Shown here one piece after another: positions 2,915-59,676 of a stretch of DNA of 64,000 nucleotides (its first letter is position 1; each line of letters begins with the position of its first letter). The DNA lies in the IMG/VR virus record IMGVR_UViG_2873063797_000001, positions 1-64,000 of that record, one strand, 5' to 3'. The position numbers and the translations under genes were made by a program. The DNA is from a virus. Lineage: Duplodnaviria > Caudoviricetes. The notes beneath the pieces were generated by a model. It did no database searches, was not told where the DNA came from, and saw only the letters and a program-made list of their open reading frames with translations.

Positions 2915-5221
2915 CTACGTCTCGTCGGTGATGGGGAGGCGGCCGAGGGCGTAGGTGCCGCGTTCGCGGCCGCAGTCGGCGCCGCGGTGGATGAGTTCCT
3001 TGCGGGTCATGGCGCTGAGGGTGTTGTCGAGGGTGGAGCCGGAGACGCCGGAGACGCGGCTGATGGTGTCGCGGCTGGTGTAGATGGTCTCGATGCCGGC
3101 GGGGTCGGTGAAGCTCTGGAGCGCTTCGAGGATCTTCTCTTCGGCGGTGGGGGGCTTCTTCGGGCCGAGGTCGATACCGGAGAGGAGAGAGGCGGTGCCG
3201 TCGCTGGGGTCGCTGTCGGTGCCGTCTTCGTCGCCGAGGATGGGCGTGGCGGCGATCTCGTCGCGGTCGTCCCAGTCGGGCCAGTCGGCGGGGTAGGCGA
3301 TGGCCGTCTCGTCGATGTAGGGGGCGGCGGACTCGAGGATGAAGGTGCGCATCATCTCGGCTGCTCCGCCGGGGCCGAGGGTGTAGCCGAGGCCGAACGT
3401 GGACTTGGGGTCCTTCAGGGTGACGGTCTCGTCGTACACGAGGGGCCGTTCGACGTCCCAGGAGGCGGGAATCTGGCCGGGGTCGACGCCCTCGAATCCG
3501 GTGGTGACGAGGTGCTGCTGCCCGGAGTCGGAGCGGAGCATGACGAGGGATCCGCCCTGGATGACGTTCATGCGGAGGGCGGTGGAGCCGCCGAGCTTGT
3601 CGGCGTTCACGGCCTGGTTGACGATCGTGAGGATGATGCCGAGGGAGCGTGCCTTGGCGGCGAGCGCCTCGAGGATGATCCCGGCTTCCTTCTTGTGGTC
3701 GACGAGTTCGGACAGGGGGACGTGGGCTTCGTCGAGGATGACGCGGACCCAGGGCCGATCCGGGGTGGCGACGAAGTTCTTCATCTTGAGGCGGGCGGAT
3801 TCCTTGATGCGCCACTGGAGGAGGGCGTAGGCGACGCGGAGGGCGCCCATGACGCCGTCTTCGCCGAGGCCGTTGTAGCAGGCCATGGTTTCGACGTCGG
3901 GGTTGGAGGAGCCCTTGGGGTCGCCGTTGATGATGGCGTGGCCGTTGACGTGGTCGGCGAGGGCGACGATCTGGACGAGGCCGCCTTTGCCGGAGCCGGT
4001 GACGCCGGCGATGAAGAGGTGGCGGGCTCCGAGGTGGGGGTCGGTGAACTGGATGCGGGCGGGGAAGCCGGAGACGTGGCGGCCGACCTGTACGTATCCG
4101 CCGTCGGAGATCTTCAGGACGTCGGTGCCGGGGAAGGGGACGCCTTCCTGGAGGGGGTTGTGCTTCATGAGGCGAATCTCGCCCTTGCGGGGGTCGCCGG
4201 GGACGGGGTTGTAGGAGCAGAGGAGGGTGTTGGTGCGGAGGGCGCCGGCGAGTTCAGCGCGGTCGGGTACGGGGATCTTGTTGATGGTCTCGCCGGCGAT
4301 GACGTAGGCGACTTCGCCGCCGGTGTTGGGGTCGGTCTGGACGTCTTCGAGGTGGGTGTCGGCCATGACGCCGCCCTTGCGGCCGACCCATTTGCGCCAG
4401 GCGCCGGCGAGGGTGTTGGGGTCGAGTTCGGCAGGGGGCTGGAGGTTGACGGTGATGGTGGCTTCGCCGGAGTGCGCGCCGGGCTTGATGGTGATCCAGG
4501 AGGCGTGGGCCTGGTAGGGGGTGGCCTGGTAGGCGGAGGAAACGGTGTCGTCGGTGACGGTGACGGCCTGTCCGGGCCGTGCGGTGATGATGCCGTTCCA
4601 GCGCAAGGCGGAGAGGGTGCGGAGTTCGAGTTCCTGGCCTTTGTGGGTGCCGGTTTCGTGGTTGGAGATGATCTGGTACCAGCGGTGGACGATCTGCTTG
4701 GCGGGGGTGTCGACGGTGACTGCCGCGGGTGTTCCTGGTGGGGCGGTGATGTGGGGGGTGGTCTTCCGCTGGCGGGCGAGGATCTTGCGGAGCTTGAGGG
4801 GGACGACGGCGACGGCGGCCCACCAGCCGAGGGAGACGATGCCGGGGATGGGGTTTCCGGCGAGGTCGAGGAAGCCGGCCATGAGGGCGTCGGTTCCTGC
4901 GGGGCCTTGGGCGGTGCCCATGAGGAGGGCCATGCCGCTGGTGAGGGTGGAGGTGAAGAGGGTGGTGCGGTGGCCGCGGATGATGTCGCCGGCGGGCAGC
5001 TGGTGGAGGAGGTTGTCGGGGAGGCGGTTCATGTAGTTCGCGGCGAGGAATCCGGCGGTGCCGCCGTAGGTGATGGCGCCGAGGATGGCGGCGCTGCCGT
5101 CGAGGAGGGGTGCGGTGATGCCGACGCCGATGGGGGCGGCGATGGTGGTCCAGGCGATGGCGCGTTCGGTGGCGGCGGGGCGGGCGGGGGCGGTGGTGGG
5201 CTGGCTCATCGGGGTCTCCAT
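2915..5221 (-). CDS. FtsK/SpoIIIE-like (TraB-type) DNA translocase
   Basis: N-terminal TM segments, Walker A AGVTGSGKG, Walker B VRVILDEAH, C-terminal winged-helix-like region. Confidence 0.8.
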   Translation of the reverse strand: METPMSQPTTAPARPAATERAIAWTTIAAPIGVGITAPLLDGSAAILGAITYGGTAGFLAANYMNRLPDNLLHQLPAGDIIRGHRTTLFTSTLTSGMALLMGTAQGPAGTDALMAGFLDLAGNPIPGIVSLGWWAAVAVVPLKLRKILARQRKTTPHITAPPGTPAAVTVDTPAKQIVHRWYQIISNHETGTHKGQELELRTLSALRWNGIITARPGQAVTVTDDTVSSAYQATPYQAHASWITIKPGAHSGEATITVNLQPPAELDPNTLAGAWRKWVGRKGGVMADTHLEDVQTDPNTGGEVAYVIAGETINKIPVPDRAELAGALRTNTLLCSYNPVPGDPRKGEIRLMKHNPLQEGVPFPGTDVLKISDGGYVQVGRHVSGFPARIQFTDPHLGARHLFIAGVTGSGKGGLVQIVALADHVNGHAIINGDPKGSSNPDVETMACYNGLGEDGVMGALRVAYALLQWRIKESARLKMKNFVATPDRPWVRVILDEAHVPLSELVDHKKEAGIILEALAAKARSLGIILTIVNQAVNADKLGGSTALRMNVIQGGSLVMLRSDSGQQHLVTTGFEGVDPGQIPASWDVERPLVYDETVTLKDPKSTFGLGYTLGPGGAAEMMRTFILESAAPYIDETAIAYPADWPDWDDRDEIAATPILGDEDGTDSDPSDGTASLLSGIDLGPKKPPTAEEKILEALQSFTDPAGIETIYTSRDTISRVSGVSGSTLDNTLSAMTRKELIHRGADCGRERGTYALGRLPITDET

Positions 5222-5259
5222 CGGCGTGTAGACGGTGGGCTGGGGGCGGGGGCCGGGGG

Positions 5260-23060: not shown

Positions 23061-24191
23061 TCAGGCGGTCTTCTCGTACTCTGCCCCCGCCGGCCCGTCC
23101 GCGGGGGCACTGTCGTCGACCCGGCAATCCGGGGACTGCGCATACTGGAAGATCAGCGAGTTCATCGTCGACACCCCCCACAACGCTTTCAGGTCGGCGA
23201 CTTCCTCGGCGAGCTTCCGCTCCGACACGCCCAACCGGCGGGCTACCGTCGCCTGCTGCGCGCCCTCGCACAGGTTCCGCATGATCTCCCGCTGCCTGCG
23301 GGTCGTACGGACCCCGTCCAGGCCGGAGCCGGCCACGCCGATCGACTCCCGCATGTCCCCGCGGCGCTTACGGAGCTGCCCCATCCACGGCCGGGCACGC
23401 CTCCACGTTTCCTCGAACGCCCGCGCCAGCATCACCACCGCGGCAGGATCAGTGATCAGCCACGCGGCATGCGGCGGGGAACCCTCCACCAGGTAGTCGG
23501 GGACGACAGCCGTCTCCCGATCCACGATGATCATCCGTTCGAACTTGCCCGGCATCGTCCGGTACTGCGCCGACCTCCCGGGCCCTCGAGTCGACATCGT
23601 CTGCGCGAACGCCGCGGTCGGCCCGTGGTCTCGGACCGTGTCCCGGTAGACCGTCCGCAACACCACACCGCGGTCCAGAGCAGCCGCATCCCGCGGCGCC
23701 GCCACGTCCAGCAGGGCCTGGTCCCGGGGGCCGCCCGGCTGTGCGGCCAGGATCTCTCGCCTCGCGCCGCCGACCACGTCCTGGAGTCGGGCGTTCACCA
23801 CCGCCTGGTCGTCCAGGTACACGGAGGCGCCGCCCGGGATGCGCAGCTGCACCGCGTCGTACGCCTGGGTGAGCTGCGCCGACAATTCCGGCAGCGCCCG
23901 CAGCAGGGCCACCTGCTTCTCCGCGGCCTCGAGGACGTCGTCGAATCGGCGCTGCAACGCGCCCTTCGGGTCCCGGACCGCCGGCACCACACCCGCGGCG
24001 TCGGGGGTGATGAGGCCCCACTCGACCAACTCGGCACGAGCCTCGGGGTGCTGGGTGGTGAGCAGCTTGACTTGTTCGGCATTTCGAATTGCGCAGGCCC
24101 CGTACAGGCGCAACGCATTCGGCGACAATTCCCGACCGTTACCGTGCGCATCAGCTATGGCCAAAGCCTTGAATCCCCCGTCACACCACAC
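23061..24191 (-). CDS. TrmB-like / LuxR C-terminal HTH transcriptional regulator (start may be TTG at 24164)
   Basis: Central PLD-like segment ERMIIVDRETAVV; C-terminal TRRQREIMRNL..G.....VARRLGVSER HTH. Confidence 0.85.
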   Translation of the reverse strand: MWCDGGFKALAIADAHGNGRELSPNALRLYGACAIRNAEQVKLLTTQHPEARAELVEWGLITPDAAGVVPAVRDPKGALQRRFDDVLEAAEKQVALLRALPELSAQLTQAYDAVQLRIPGGASVYLDDQAVVNARLQDVVGGARREILAAQPGGPRDQALLDVAAPRDAAALDRGVVLRTVYRDTVRDHGPTAAFAQTMSTRGPGRSAQYRTMPGKFERMIIVDRETAVVPDYLVEGSPPHAAWLITDPAAVVMLARAFEETWRRARPWMGQLRKRRGDMRESIGVAGSGLDGVRTTRRQREIMRNLCEGAQQATVARRLGVSERKLAEEVADLKALWGVSTMNSLIFQYAQSPDCRVDDSAPADGPAGAEYEKTA

Positions 24192-24436
24192 AGATCAACT
24201 GCGGATTCCCGCACTGCGAACACCCGCACGAACCAGCCGTTGAAGACTCAAACAGCGTACGGCAACGTAGCCATGGGGCGTCCCCCGACGCTCGTACCCC
24301 ACATCCTCCCCACACCCAACAACAACTACTGCCAGGTTGTTGAAGGCAAAAGGGGACTCGCAGCAGGATGAGGAACACGAGAACTCGGGCCAGGCGCCCC
24401 ACTATGCATTCCCCAACCGACAGAAAGGACGACCCT

Positions 24437-24664
24437 GTGAAGCAGCCCCTGCGAAGGCTCCTCGCCGGCCTGTCCCTCACCGCCGCGACCCTCGGCGGCA
24501 CCCTCGCCGCCACCGGAACAGCCGCAGCCACGGCCCCGCCTGACACCGCATGGGGCGCACCCGCCCCCACCACCGGCGACGACGGTACCGACGACACCGC
24601 CTGGGGCACCCCGCCCACCACCGGCGGCCCGTCCGTCACCCCGCTCGACACCGCCTGGGGCTAG
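24437..24664 (+). CDS. Secreted peptide precursor with three DTAWG repeats
   Basis: GAAAGGA RBS, GTG; Sec-type signal KQPLRRLLAGLSLTAATLGGTLAATGTAAA; repeats at 24542, 24593, 24647. Confidence 0.85.
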   Translation: MKQPLRRLLAGLSLTAATLGGTLAATGTAAATAPPDTAWGAPAPTTGDDGTDDTAWGTPPTTGGPSVTPLDTAWG

Positions 24665-24770
24665 ACCCCGGCACGCCCCAGACCGGCCCGGCAGCACGCC
24701 CCCAGCACCGCTGCCGGGCCACCCCCATGAGGAGGCAACGTCCGCCCGGAAACCCGGCACCGTAGAGGGC

Positions 24771-25358
24771 ATGGCACCTTCCCCCGAACCACAAGCCGTC
24801 GACTACAACGGCCGCCCCCTCCACGTCGGCGACACCGTCGCCTACATCGGCATCGACCCCGTCCGCCTCTGCGAAGGCCGCGTCGTCGTCACCAGCCCTC
24901 GCAACATCTGCATCGAATCCGGTCCCCACCTCATCACCTTCAGCGGCCACCCCGCCTCGCTCGGCACCCCTCCGCCACGCCCCCTGGACGGCACCGTCAC
25001 CCGCAACAAGCAGGAGCAGGAGCCATTCCAGTACCCGCAGGTCGCCCTGACCGACACGGAGAACCGCTACAGCAGCGTCGGACTGTACGTCGGCGACCGC
25101 GATCTACCCGCCGACGTTGTGCAGGGCGAAATGATCTCGGAGTCCGGTCCCCGCGTCGTCCTCGACGAGAACGAACGCCGGCACCAGGCCGTCATCGACC
25201 GCGTGGACGAGCTACTCGCCGTCATCGAGCGGGTGCGCGCCTTCGCGGCCCGGCTGGAAGAGTTCGCCGAGAACGCCCTCCGAGACGACGACCGGAAGCT
25301 CTACGCGGCTGTTGCCAGCGATCTCCGTGCCCGCATCGACCGTGAGGAAGGGCAATGA
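24771..25358 (+). CDS. Hypothetical protein
   Basis: Codon bias; coupled to the next gene. Confidence 0.7.
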   Translation: MAPSPEPQAVDYNGRPLHVGDTVAYIGIDPVRLCEGRVVVTSPRNICIESGPHLITFSGHPASLGTPPPRPLDGTVTRNKQEQEPFQYPQVALTDTENRYSSVGLYVGDRDLPADVVQGEMISESGPRVVLDENERRHQAVIDRVDELLAVIERVRAFAARLEEFAENALRDDDRKLYAAVASDLRARIDREEGQ

Positions 25359-25795
25359 GCGGCGAGACCAAGACCTTCGGCACCGTGGGGGTCATCGCCT
25401 GGCTCATCACAGCCGTCGCAGCCGTCGACATGGCACTCGGGAATCCATCCGCGATCAACGGCGTCATCGGCGCCGGCGTGGGAGCAGCAGCCTTCACGTG
25501 GATGGCCTGGACGATGCACCGCGAGGACGAACTCGATCGTCCTCAACCGGTCGTTCCGCGCGTCGACCTGAACCGGATCGCGGTCCTGGAGCACGAACTC
25601 CTCGGCATCACGCCCGAGCCCGGTACCCCAGCCGCTCACGCCGTGGCCAGGGCGCAGCCCGTCGATCCGGCTGCGTGTCCCCACGACGATGTCATCGACG
25701 TCACCGAGATGGGGCAGGCGCGCGACATGGGCCTGTGTGAGCGCTGCGGCGCCGGGATGGTTGCCGACGACGAAGGAGGATGGCAGCGTCCATGA
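25355..25795 (+). CDS. Membrane protein (two TM) with a C-terminal Cys motif
   Basis: Hydrophobic N-terminus; ATGA coupling. Confidence 0.7.
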   Translation: MSGETKTFGTVGVIAWLITAVAAVDMALGNPSAINGVIGAGVGAAAFTWMAWTMHREDELDRPQPVVPRVDLNRIAVLEHELLGITPEPGTPAAHAVARAQPVDPAACPHDDVIDVTEMGQARDMGLCERCGAGMVADDEGGWQRP

Positions 25796-26085
25796 CAGAA
25801 GAACCAGAGGAGGGGACGTACGAGCCGGTCATGCTGATCGTGCTCGCCAAGAGCAACGGCGGCCCCTACGACGACGCAGCCGTAGTAGCCGGGATGACGT
25901 GCGGCGCCCTGGAGAAGGAACTCGCCATGACGGCGGCCTTGAACACGCTGCCTCACGAGCGGTACATCGACGGCCCTCTGATCAAGCAGACGGATCTCAT
26001 CGCCATGCGGCACGGGTACAAGCTCGTCGTGGGCGAGGTCGACGAGGCGTCCGGCTGGCAGCACGTGGCGTTCGACTGGGCGTAG
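25792..26085 (+). CDS. Hypothetical protein
   Basis: ATGA coupling. Confidence 0.7.
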   Translation: MTEEPEEGTYEPVMLIVLAKSNGGPYDDAAVVAGMTCGALEKELAMTAALNTLPHERYIDGPLIKQTDLIAMRHGYKLVVGEVDEASGWQHVAFDWA

Positions 26086-26141: not shown

Positions 26142-26909
26142 ATGCCTCGCATACCCGCACGAACCCGCCCCCTCTGCACCCTCGGCGGGATACTCGCCGG
26201 CGTCCTCACCCTCACCGCCGCCACCCTCCCCACCCCCACCTACTCCGGGACCGGCTGGAAAGCCCTCACCCAACACGGGATCTACAGCCTCCACCCCGGC
26301 CCGTACGACATCGTCTGGGCCGACACCACCGCCCGCACCACACTCACCCGGTACTTCAAGCTGCCCGCAGCGCAGGTCACCCGGTCCGTCGGCGTCCGCA
26401 TCAACATCACCACCACGCTCGACACCACGCCTCCGACCGCCTGCCCGGCCCGGCACCGCATCGTCGTCCACTACACGCACCAGCCCATGGGCCAGCCCGG
26501 CATGAGCCAAGCCCTCCCCTGCCACGCCACCGGCAACAACTCCGCGTGGGGCGGGCACATCCGCATGGACTCCGAGTACTGGACCGTGCCGACCTGGTTC
26601 GGGCCGTCCCCGACGGTGAACGAAGCCCGGAGGAAGGACGCGGCCGCGCACGAGCTGGGGCACATCCTCGGCCTCGACCACGCCAACACCGACATCGACC
26701 ACGACGGGGTCGTGGAGGCCGGGGAGTGCGTCGCCAAGAACGGGCTGCGACCGTTGATGTGCTCCCCGAACCGCGGCCTGCCACTGTCCAAGCCGGGCGG
26801 GGGCGCGGGCCCGTTCGTCCACACGCTGGAAGCCGGCCGGTTCTCCAAGGACTTCGACCTGCCCGGCCTGCGGCAACTCCTCGCCAACTACACGCTGCGC
26901 CAGAGCTGA
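26142..26909 (+). CDS. Secreted metzincin (matrixin/M10-like) zinc protease
   Basis: Signal peptide; HELGHILGLDH (HExxHxxGxxH) at 26649-26681; Met-turn-like PLMC. Confidence 0.85.
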   Translation: MPRIPARTRPLCTLGGILAGVLTLTAATLPTPTYSGTGWKALTQHGIYSLHPGPYDIVWADTTARTTLTRYFKLPAAQVTRSVGVRINITTTLDTTPPTACPARHRIVVHYTHQPMGQPGMSQALPCHATGNNSAWGGHIRMDSEYWTVPTWFGPSPTVNEARRKDAAAHELGHILGLDHANTDIDHDGVVEAGECVAKNGLRPLMCSPNRGLPLSKPGGGAGPFVHTLEAGRFSKDFDLPGLRQLLANYTLRQS

Positions 26910-57956: not shown

Positions 57957-58181
57957 ATGACGCTGGTAGCGGGCGAGTACGAGTTCACGTGCGACGAATG
58001 CGACGGGGACGGGAACCTGCAATACATCCGCATTACGACCGAGGGCGACGACGAGCCCGAACTCGTCTGGGACAAGTGCGACGACTGCCACGGCGAAGGC
58101 CGGCTCCTGGTCGACGAGGAAGAAGCGGCCGAGAAGATCCGCTGGGGGCAGACCCCGACACGCACCCCTGCCGCCGCCTAG
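57957..58181 (+). CDS. DnaJ-type zinc-finger small protein
   Basis: CDECDGDG ... CDDCHGEG. Confidence 0.75.
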   Translation: MTLVAGEYEFTCDECDGDGNLQYIRITTEGDDEPELVWDKCDDCHGEGRLLVDEEEAAEKIRWGQTPTRTPAAA

Positions 58182-59254
58182 TCTTCGTCCCCGCCCGGAA
58201 GACGCTCGGCAATTCGGGCGGCGATGCGGTAGCCGGGGCTGTTGTCGAGGCGGCCGCGCCGGCGGTCGTAGCGTCGGGTGGTCCGCGGGTCCTTGTGGTC
58301 GGCGAAGTCCTGCACGTGGTGGAGCTTGGCGTCGGGCGCGTCCAGGGCGTGGGTGACGGCGTCGTGCTTGAGGACGTGCGGGTGGAAGGTGGCCGCGTTG
58401 GCGATACCCGCCTTGGCCGCTAGGCGCCGCACGAGGCGCCACACGTAGGCCGGGTCCAGTGGGTTGCCGTTGCGGGTCTGGAACAGTGGTCCCGTGGTGC
58501 GGCCCGCGAGGTAGACGTCGATGGCGTGCCCGGTGGCCGGTGGGACGACCTTCGGTTTGCGGCGGCCACCCTTCAGGCGGACGTTGAGAATGCGGTGCCC
58601 CTTGTCGTAGCCGAGGTCGTCGGCTTGGGCGCCGAGGGCGGAGTCGAGGCGTAGCGCCACGGTGTAGATGGCGAGCAGGAGGGCGTAGGAGCGGGGTCCG
58701 TCCTCGTAGGCCGCGGCGAGCAGGCGCGCGGACTCTTCTTCGGTGCTGCCTTGGGTGTCGGAGCCGTCCTGGTCCAACTCGGGGCGGGCGACGAGGTCGA
58801 AGGGGTCGATGCCGTCTCCGAGGGCACGGACCGCGTACTTGTGGAAGCTGGAGCAGGCGGAGAGCAGGTTGGCGCGGGCGGCGTCGGAGCGGGGCGGACC
58901 GGTGGGGGCCTTCTGCCCGCGGTGGCCGCCCTTGACGGGGACCATGGTGGGTGCGGTTTCGAGGTGGCGGGAGAACGCTTCGGCGAGGGGGAAGCGGGCT
59001 TGGAGCGGGTGGGTGCCGGTCTCGCGGGCGTAGGTGTCCCACACCCGGTATTGGCGGACGTACGTCTGCCGGGTGTTCTTCGTCTTCTGCCGGGCAATCC
59101 AGGCGCCTACGAGACCGGGGTATGGGTCGCCTGCCGGGTAGTGGCCAGCCAACTCGGTGGCGAAGTCGAGGGCTTCGGAGGGCCAGTCGTCGGCGGCGCT
59201 GCGGGTGCGCGCGGCGAGTTGGCCGCCGCGCGCTCTCGGGACGAGCTCGGTCAT
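58178..59254 (-). CDS. Tyrosine recombinase/integrase
   Basis: VALRLDS (R), LKGG (K), HPHVLKH, FADHKDPRTTRRYD (H, Y). Confidence 0.88.
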   Translation of the reverse strand: MTELVPRARGGQLAARTRSAADDWPSEALDFATELAGHYPAGDPYPGLVGAWIARQKTKNTRQTYVRQYRVWDTYARETGTHPLQARFPLAEAFSRHLETAPTMVPVKGGHRGQKAPTGPPRSDAARANLLSACSSFHKYAVRALGDGIDPFDLVARPELDQDGSDTQGSTEEESARLLAAAYEDGPRSYALLLAIYTVALRLDSALGAQADDLGYDKGHRILNVRLKGGRRKPKVVPPATGHAIDVYLAGRTTGPLFQTRNGNPLDPAYVWRLVRRLAAKAGIANAATFHPHVLKHDAVTHALDAPDAKLHHVQDFADHKDPRTTRRYDRRRGRLDNSPGYRIAARIAERLPGGDED

Positions 59255-59676
59255 GGCCGAAGCTCCGTCGGAAAGTCGTGGTGATCCGTGTATGAAGCGG
59301 CTACGTCACGGACGTCGGGGCATGGCCACGCCCGTTGGCAGTGATTGCAGACCAGCACACCCCAGTGCGGTGCTTCGCACTCTGTGCACTGTCCCATGGA
59401 GTGCGGGGTGTGCCGGGCCAGCATGCGTCGCTTGGCCTCGACCTCGACAAGCACGCGTTCGGCTTCGCCTGGCGCTCGGGTTCCTGTGCCAGTGAAGAGG
59501 GTGAGAGCGGCGGCGGTGTCGGGGTCGTTCCGGACGACCTCCGCCAGAGCGAAGGCGCCCTCTGTGGCTTCGGTGGAGGTGACGATGGCTCCGCTCTCGC
59601 GGAGTCGGATGGCGGCCCGCATGAACGTCTCGTCGTCGTTCAGTCGGTCTTGCAGGAAGCGCAGCGGGTCGTCCAC
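59251..59676 (-). CDS. DUF6221-like protein
   Basis: FL..RL..DE ... RVL.EVEAKR.ML..H ... PC..VR..A..Y..H. Confidence 0.7.
   Translation of the reverse strand: MDDPLRFLQDRLNDDETFMRAAIRLRESGAIVTSTEATEGAFALAEVVRNDPDTAAALTLFTGTGTRAPGEAERVLVEVEAKRRMLARHTPHSMGQCTECEAPHWGVLVCNHCQRAWPCPDVRDVAASYTDHHDFPTELRP

Follow-up and report, generated by a model that had tools for sequence, protein, structure and literature searches.

The window analysed here, the first 64 kb (64,000 nucleotides; G+C ~70%) of an 89,658-bp extrachromosomal contig in a two-contig genome, contains a short gene for a predicted secreted peptide and a cytoplasmic regulator gene arranged head to head. The peptide gene (24437–24664, + strand) encodes 75 amino acids from a GTG codon located 8 nt after the sequence GAAAGGA, and its third codon positions are rich in G and C (GC3 0.89). 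Residues 1–33 form a predicted signal peptide with a basic n-region (VKQPLRR), a hydrophobic core and a signal-peptidase site between ATA and PP, and the mature part carries three DTAWG units at residues 36–40, 53–57 and 71–75 (nucleotides 24542–24556, 24593–24607 and 24647–24661), the last of which abuts the stop codon at 24662. These units are written at the DNA level as gacaccgcatggggc once and gacaccgcctggggc twice. The original prediction had described both the Sec-signal ORF with three DTAWG units, the last at the stop, and the form of the DNA repeats, and the sequence and its translation agree with it on both counts. Searches of PHROGs, Pfam and NCBIfam returned no family for the propeptide and nothing informative for most neighbouring genes. 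In the 8.39-Mb host genome, signal-peptide ORFs ending in D..W(x) occurred four times, with only the one on the plasmid convincing, which sets a background of ~3 spurious matches per 8.4 Mb; a chromosomal DTAWG-stop sequence (C1:286832) was likewise dismissed as chance, because no signal-peptide ORF is present there. Downstream of the peptide gene, 20 nt past its stop, a GC-rich hairpin (24685–24720, +) with a perfect 11-bp stem and no U tract (−30.7 kcal/mol, z −2.7) is a candidate terminator or attenuator.

The divergent regulator gene (23061–24164, − strand) encodes 367 amino acids from a TTG codon at 24164. The reading frame is open to a GTG at 24191 (23061–24191, −), and the TTG is most likely the conserved start, as it follows a GGGGGA Shine-Dalgarno sequence and gives a 367-aa protein matching the database copy. 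No signal peptide was predicted for this protein. In the AlphaFold2 (AF2) model (pLDDT 76), a winged HTH is succeeded by a helix of 39 residues, an alpha/beta domain and, at the C-terminus, a helical bundle. In P0001 numbering these parts are a winged HTH at residues ~24–72, a long helix at 75–113, a PLD-like domain at 123–265 and a putative LuxR-type four-helix HTH at 298–357. The best Foldseek matches of the model were the archaeal regulators TrmBL2 (5bpi/5bpd, E 1e-11) and TrmB (3qph, 6e-9; 2f5t was also matched), with the PLD-fold proteins Nuc and Zucchini coming next, and the model thus includes the winged N-terminal HTH, the coiled-coil helix and the PLD-like effector subdomain of the TrmB type. 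The sugar-binding beta-barrel subdomain of TrmB is absent from the model, in which only helices follow residue 298, and no Pfam TrmB model matched the protein at E≤0.1. The C-terminus scored weakly against GerE (PF00196; 17.6 bits, cut-off 23.5) and gave similarly weak profile matches to NarL, FixJ and GerE (E 0.02–0.3), while PF00196 is carried by some regulator homologues. In the PLD-like domain, the HxK(x)4D motif is degenerate: residues 241–248 read HAAWLITD (H241-x-A243-x4-D248), with alanine in place of the lysine, which suggests a non-catalytic domain. The TrmB/PLD-like/LuxR anatomy first proposed from the letters alone is therefore backed by AF2 and Foldseek for the TrmB and PLD folds and, for the LuxR part, by a four-helix HTH in the model together with weak LuxR/GerE matches. 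The accompanying claim that the putative receptor is not a TPR protein of the RRNPP kind also held, since Foldseek gave TrmBL2, TrmB and PLD-fold proteins instead; no TPR protein appeared among the Foldseek matches listed and no TPR family was found in Pfam or NCBIfam.

The 272-bp intergenic region between the two genes is conserved to a degree exceeding that of either protein. Two tandem 15-bp boxes, TGCGGATTCCCGCAC and TGCGAACACCCGCAC (24200–24229, +), each a 5-4-5 inverted repeat and kept in 11 loci, sit immediately 5' of a −35-like TTGAAG (24240) and are a candidate operator of the regulator. This hexamer, a 17-nt spacer and a conserved cAnnnT form a candidate promoter of the peptide transcript (24240–24268, +); a consensus promoter and terminator scan gave no matches. 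Exact box matches occur three times in the window against 0.3 expected. The third, an exact TGCGRNNNNCCGCAC box at 59365–59379 (−), lies ~110 bp 5' of an integrase-family gene (58178–59254, −), is probably inside a small Cys-rich ORF and may be a chance match; apart from this single further exact box within the window, no regulon beyond the local boxes was found.

The peptide mRNA probably begins with a structured 5' leader of ~125 nt (24274–24401, +), which includes the 21-mer GGGCGTCCCCCGRCGCTCGTA at 24276–24296 and the conserved blocks TCCTCCCC, ACTGCCAG and TCGCAGCAGGA. The 21-mer is near-invariant and is present in all phage-plasmid-clade loci with a peptide gene, 140–150 nt 5' of the start codon, and the leader is confined to this clade. 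RNAalifold placed a closing helix between 24274–24282 and 24393–24401; in an alignment of 20 sequences, 98% of cells were paired and four pairs showed compensatory changes. Only 2–3 of 500 shuffles were as good and all slid controls were far worse, while G-U pairs fit the + strand only (minimum free energy z −2.9 on +, −1.4 on −). Support for the structure is nevertheless moderate because most paired columns never vary. No Rfam family matched the leader.

Beyond the peptide gene lie three co-oriented genes of 195, 146 and 101 aa with no assigned function (24771–26085, +), and then a gene for a secreted metzincin-type zinc protease (26142–26909, +) with the motif HELGHILGLDH and a weak match to the M10/M12 families (E ~1e-4). 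The slot after the peptide gene differs among relatives, being filled by a protease, by a DUF7352 member or by a protein resembling Tad3. Six further loci (L002, L006, L007, L008, L046 and L059) have a metzincin homologue 3' of the peptide gene and in the same orientation, and on plasmid NZ_CP109172 it is the very next gene. The linked metzincin is a candidate maturation or quenching protease. In one metagenomic relative, the gene right after a DTAWG peptide (L113, 2817–3308, +) matches PF25185 (Tad3), which suggests that this slot can hold anti-defence cargo.

The element carrying the pair looks like a ZL12-type Streptomyces phage-plasmid, judged from its gene content. Its large terminase (491–2017, −) shares 63% identity with the terminase of Streptomyces phage ZL12 (the circular plasmid-prophage pZL12, 90,435 bp), and further genes encode ParA, ParB, DciA, RecT, a cytosine methylase and a protein of the integrase family; like the ZL12/pZL12 type, it is extrachromosomal, within the ~85–94 kb range and equipped with both phage packaging and plasmid partition genes, beside a chromosome of 8.30 Mb. 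Describing the system as phage-encoded, as had been done at the outset, is fair inasmuch as phage terminase and packaging genes are present, provided it is added that we are dealing with a phage-plasmid. The ZL12-type terminase was found in 32 Streptomyces and Kitasatospora plasmids, nearly all of 85–94 kb, of which six carry the regulator, and other regulator carriers have a different terminase. In sequence searches of phage ZL12 itself, the regulator, the leader and the peptide were all absent, and since ZL12 does without the regulator and the leader element, the cassette is regarded as accessory.

The association of the two genes extends well beyond this element. Among ~50,000 phage records searched by tblastn with the regulator, the sole match was gp29 of Streptomyces phage Chymera (30% identity), and its divergent neighbour, gp30, is 59 aa long and has a signal peptide and two DPGWG units, of which the second is C-terminal; this pair adjoins integrase, immunity repressor and excise genes. 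By profile-guided retrieval from species-representative genomes and IMG/VR, 44 loci were collected, and a divergent signal-peptide gene was found beside regulator relatives in Chymera, ~20 phage-plasmids, viral contigs and many chromosomes, with 1–3 copies of D-x-x-W-(G/D/N/F/none), the last copy always C-terminal. The propeptide start lies ~270 bp from the regulator start, and a signal-peptide ORF is kept at this spot across loci. All phage-plasmid-type loci but one (L011) have this ORF, and its last unit forms the C-terminal end in every case; most of these peptides carry 2–3 units of DT[A/G/T/W/H]WG or DSTWG, with a single DTCWC in L009. Two peptide genes look broken, one having lost its last unit (L054) and the other its signal-peptide frame (L079), and may be decaying copies.

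In a survey of 400 Streptomyces species, 28 had a regulator homologue at E≤1e-40 and 17 of these had a D..W signal-peptide ORF within 1.5 kb, with the motifs D[LIV]GWG, DSDWG, DSGWG, DSSWN, DPGWD, DSVW and DTTW, while distant paralogues were accompanied by DSTWG, DSQWG, DDRWG and DSKWD. Homologous regulators thus usually carry a neighbouring DxxW peptide, a check that the original prediction had itself named, with a motif that differs by regulator clade, and the mobile-element setting proposed for the pair was likewise recovered in phage-plasmids, viral contigs and Chymera. When the search was started from the peptide, the regulator was the divergent neighbour in all four places found, and in S. 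collinus the peptide and regulator genes have consecutive locus tags. The pairing is retained from 78% down to ~25% regulator identity, in phage, phage-plasmids and viral contigs, and chromosomes, and on this comparative footing it is not due to chance. The host chromosome itself has three tandem distant regulator paralogues (L053, G000:C1:4207000–4213500), one of which is divergent from a single-copy signal-peptide gene (positions 5006–5248 of that locus, +) ending in DSVWD; the chromosome and the phage-plasmid, with DSVWD and DTAWG, respectively, therefore hold different dialects of one system. At 50% identity, the whole regulator family (E≤1e-3) falls into 2,372 clusters, and each of the 22 Streptomyces genomes of a class-wide sample has 1–5 members. 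As these genomic contexts indicate, the system is not phage-specific and belongs to a wide Streptomyces family that is also chromosomal. Given the chromosomal copies and the absence from ZL12, the tuning of lysis and lysogeny, which had been suggested for it, is only one possible output.

Conservation within the precursors is concentrated in the repeated motif. Units two and three are unchanged in all 25 DTAWG-type precursors compared; the first unit has degenerated in a few of them, and the hypervariable spacers differ in both sequence and length. Across 57 motif copies, synonymous variation is seen in the codons for Thr, Ala and Gly, a pattern that indicates purifying selection on the motif alone. 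The D and W are universal, and the other positions depend on the clade (DT[AGTWH]WG, DSTWG, DPGW[GD], D[LIV]GWG, DSVW, DSSWN and DSTWF). When 79 regulators were placed on a tree, nearly every clade contained peptide-linked members, and the type of motif went with the clade.

Two clades of the tree lack the peptide. The first comprises 18 Nocardioides-type genes downstream of a PEPCK-like gene; in loci L014–L024, L027 and L029–L035, regulators of this type lie directly 3' of that gene without a DxxW peptide and match query residues ~105–350 only. The second, a sister clade, comprises seven Streptomyces regulators (L056–L058 and L060–L063) divergent from an MmyB-like regulator, a partner of ~315–414 aa that combines an XRE HTH with a ligand-binding domain resembling that of MmyB. 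The existence of these two clades implies that the regulator fold senses other things too. No regulator residue pattern separates partners of DTWWG from those of DTAWG/DTGWG, the DTWWG-specific columns falling in the wing and long helix with no pocket pattern; the AAW..TD motif splits the tree by clade and not by peptide presence, and no residue pattern marks peptide-linked against peptide-less clades. Moreover, specificity at motif position 3 is doubtful because a single precursor can mix A, G or T there.

These data are best read as a propeptide and intracellular-receptor signalling cassette in which the peptide would be the ligand of the adjacent regulator, RRNPP- or arbitrium-like in its working and not homologous to those systems; we consider this reading somewhat more probable than all others together. 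It starts from what is observed of the gene anatomy, the conserved linkage, the motif that tracks the regulator clade and the purifying selection on that motif alone, together with a fold taken from a structure model. In its favour are the breadth of the pairing, the exact C-terminal position of the motif, the peptide-first result, the absence from ZL12, the TrmB-type fold without a signal peptide and the recurring protease; against it stand the lack of residue covariation, the mixed position 3, the two peptide-less clades and the lack of a wider regulon.

The main rival is a regulated secreted effector. The small protein or its fragments would then act outside the cell, for example on the envelope, a phage receptor, a host protease or development, and the regulator would control their expression in response to some other ligand. 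Divergent regulator-target pairs are common, the peptide-less clades point to other inputs for the regulator fold, no receptor residues covary with the peptide and the boxes are local only, all of which would suit such an effector, and its multivalent repeats could bind an oligomeric target. However, only 4–5 mature residues are conserved, at an exact C-terminus even in single-copy forms, which is easier to reconcile with a released ligand than with a folded effector, and the motif shifts with the regulator clade, a change that would be unnecessary if phages, plasmids and chromosomes all shared one extracellular target. We rank signalling above the secreted effector, to which we assign a minor but real share of the probability. 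It is rather improbable that the peptide serves as a signal perceived at the membrane, or by some host receptor other than the adjacent regulator, which would itself act upstream as the switch of the producer. The D..W core is invariant across regulators only ~25% identical, which might point to a host receptor or a processing enzyme that has been conserved, but in Chymera, the phage-plasmids and the chromosomal loci examined neither a sensor kinase nor a membrane receptor is kept next to the pair. A multi-core, RiPP-like precursor of a Trp-modified natural product, suggested by the repeated short core with its invariant Trp, and by other RiPPs and ComX, where precursors with several cores and modified Trp residues are known, is very improbable and was rejected as the main reading because no modifying enzyme (radical SAM, P450, prenyltransferase or cyclase) is conserved beside the gene in the contexts examined. 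The precursor also has a Sec signal in place of a leader peptide.

For the signalling cassette, the route from export and processing through import and binding to the operator and its output might be as follows. The 75-aa precursor would be exported by Sec and cleaved after ATA, and extracellular proteases, possibly including the linked metzincin, would release short DTAWG-containing peptides. A single cut would free the C-terminal copy, and 2 residues separate the first copy from the signal-peptidase site, while release of the internal copies needs a cut after Gly by a so far hypothetical protease. The peptides would build up with the density of carrier cells, be re-imported by an oligopeptide permease and attach to the divergent TrmB-like/LuxR regulator at its PLD-like effector domain. 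Binding would alter the occupancy of the boxes at 24200–24229 by the regulator and, in turn, the transcription both of the peptide transcript, comprising the leader, the peptide and the downstream cargo, and of the regulator itself.

Among the known systems that such a cassette would resemble is the arbitrium system (AimR-AimP-AimX) of Bacillus SPbeta-like phages, which is likewise carried by temperate phages or mobile elements and encodes a small Sec-exported propeptide with a conserved short C-terminal unit beside the gene for a cytoplasmic DNA-binding protein. The peptide similarly combines a conserved core with variable positions, and the Chymera pair adjoins integrase and repressor genes. 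In contrast to arbitrium, the putative receptor here is TrmB-like/PLD-like with a putative LuxR HTH and not a TPR protein, the genes are divergent and not in tandem, up to three peptide units are present, a probable structured leader lies 5' of the peptide ORF instead of an AimX counterpart, and the hosts are Actinomycetota. The two-gene layout of propeptide and intracellular receptor is also shared with the RRNPP systems (Rap-Phr, NprR-NprX, PlcR-PapR and PrgX-cCF10) and with Rgg-SHP/ComR-ComS. RRNPP systems produce their mature peptide from the C-terminal end of a Sec propeptide and are frequent on plasmids and phages (PMC10075063). An adjacent exported-propeptide gene, as predicted by its signal peptide, is present here, whereas the TPR receptor of RRNPP systems is not, the regulator having neither a TPR nor an Rgg-type fold and belonging to another phylum; since the layout matches and the receptor is unrelated to TPR proteins, the cassette would be RRNPP- or arbitrium-like in working and is not a member of either.

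The regulator shares with archaeal TrmB and TrmBL2 the winged HTH, the long dimerisation-type helix and the PLD-like effector subdomain, and differs from them in a putative LuxR-type HTH in place of the sugar-binding beta-barrel, in a bacterial origin on mobile elements and in a presumed ligand that is a peptide rather than a sugar. Fungal alpha-factor-type pheromone precursors are likewise secreted proteins in which one short peptide recurs with spacers in between; they show no homology, have other processing signals and act through a membrane GPCR. To our knowledge, peptide communication in phages and plasmids has been described in Bacillota alone, always with TPR receptors, and Actinomycetota are described as using small-molecule signals such as butyrolactones. 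Small molecules have been described as the typical signals of this phylum (PMC10075063). In the full-text literature searched, whose coverage leaves most subscription journals outside, no description of D-x-x-W motifs or of peptide signalling in Streptomyces phages was found.

More broadly, and with a confidence falling a little short of even, we propose that the pair represents a new TPR-independent peptide signalling family in Actinomycetota, built from 1–3 D-x-x-W units and a TrmB-like/LuxR receptor, which temperate phages and phage-plasmids of Streptomyces would have captured for density-dependent decisions, with the leader RNA as part of the circuit. If the cassette does signal, the logic of propeptide and intracellular receptor would have arisen independently on another receptor fold, and Streptomyces, its phages and its phage-plasmids would possess a genetically encoded peptide language with dialects, which would also offer a simple inducible switch for industrially important Streptomyces.
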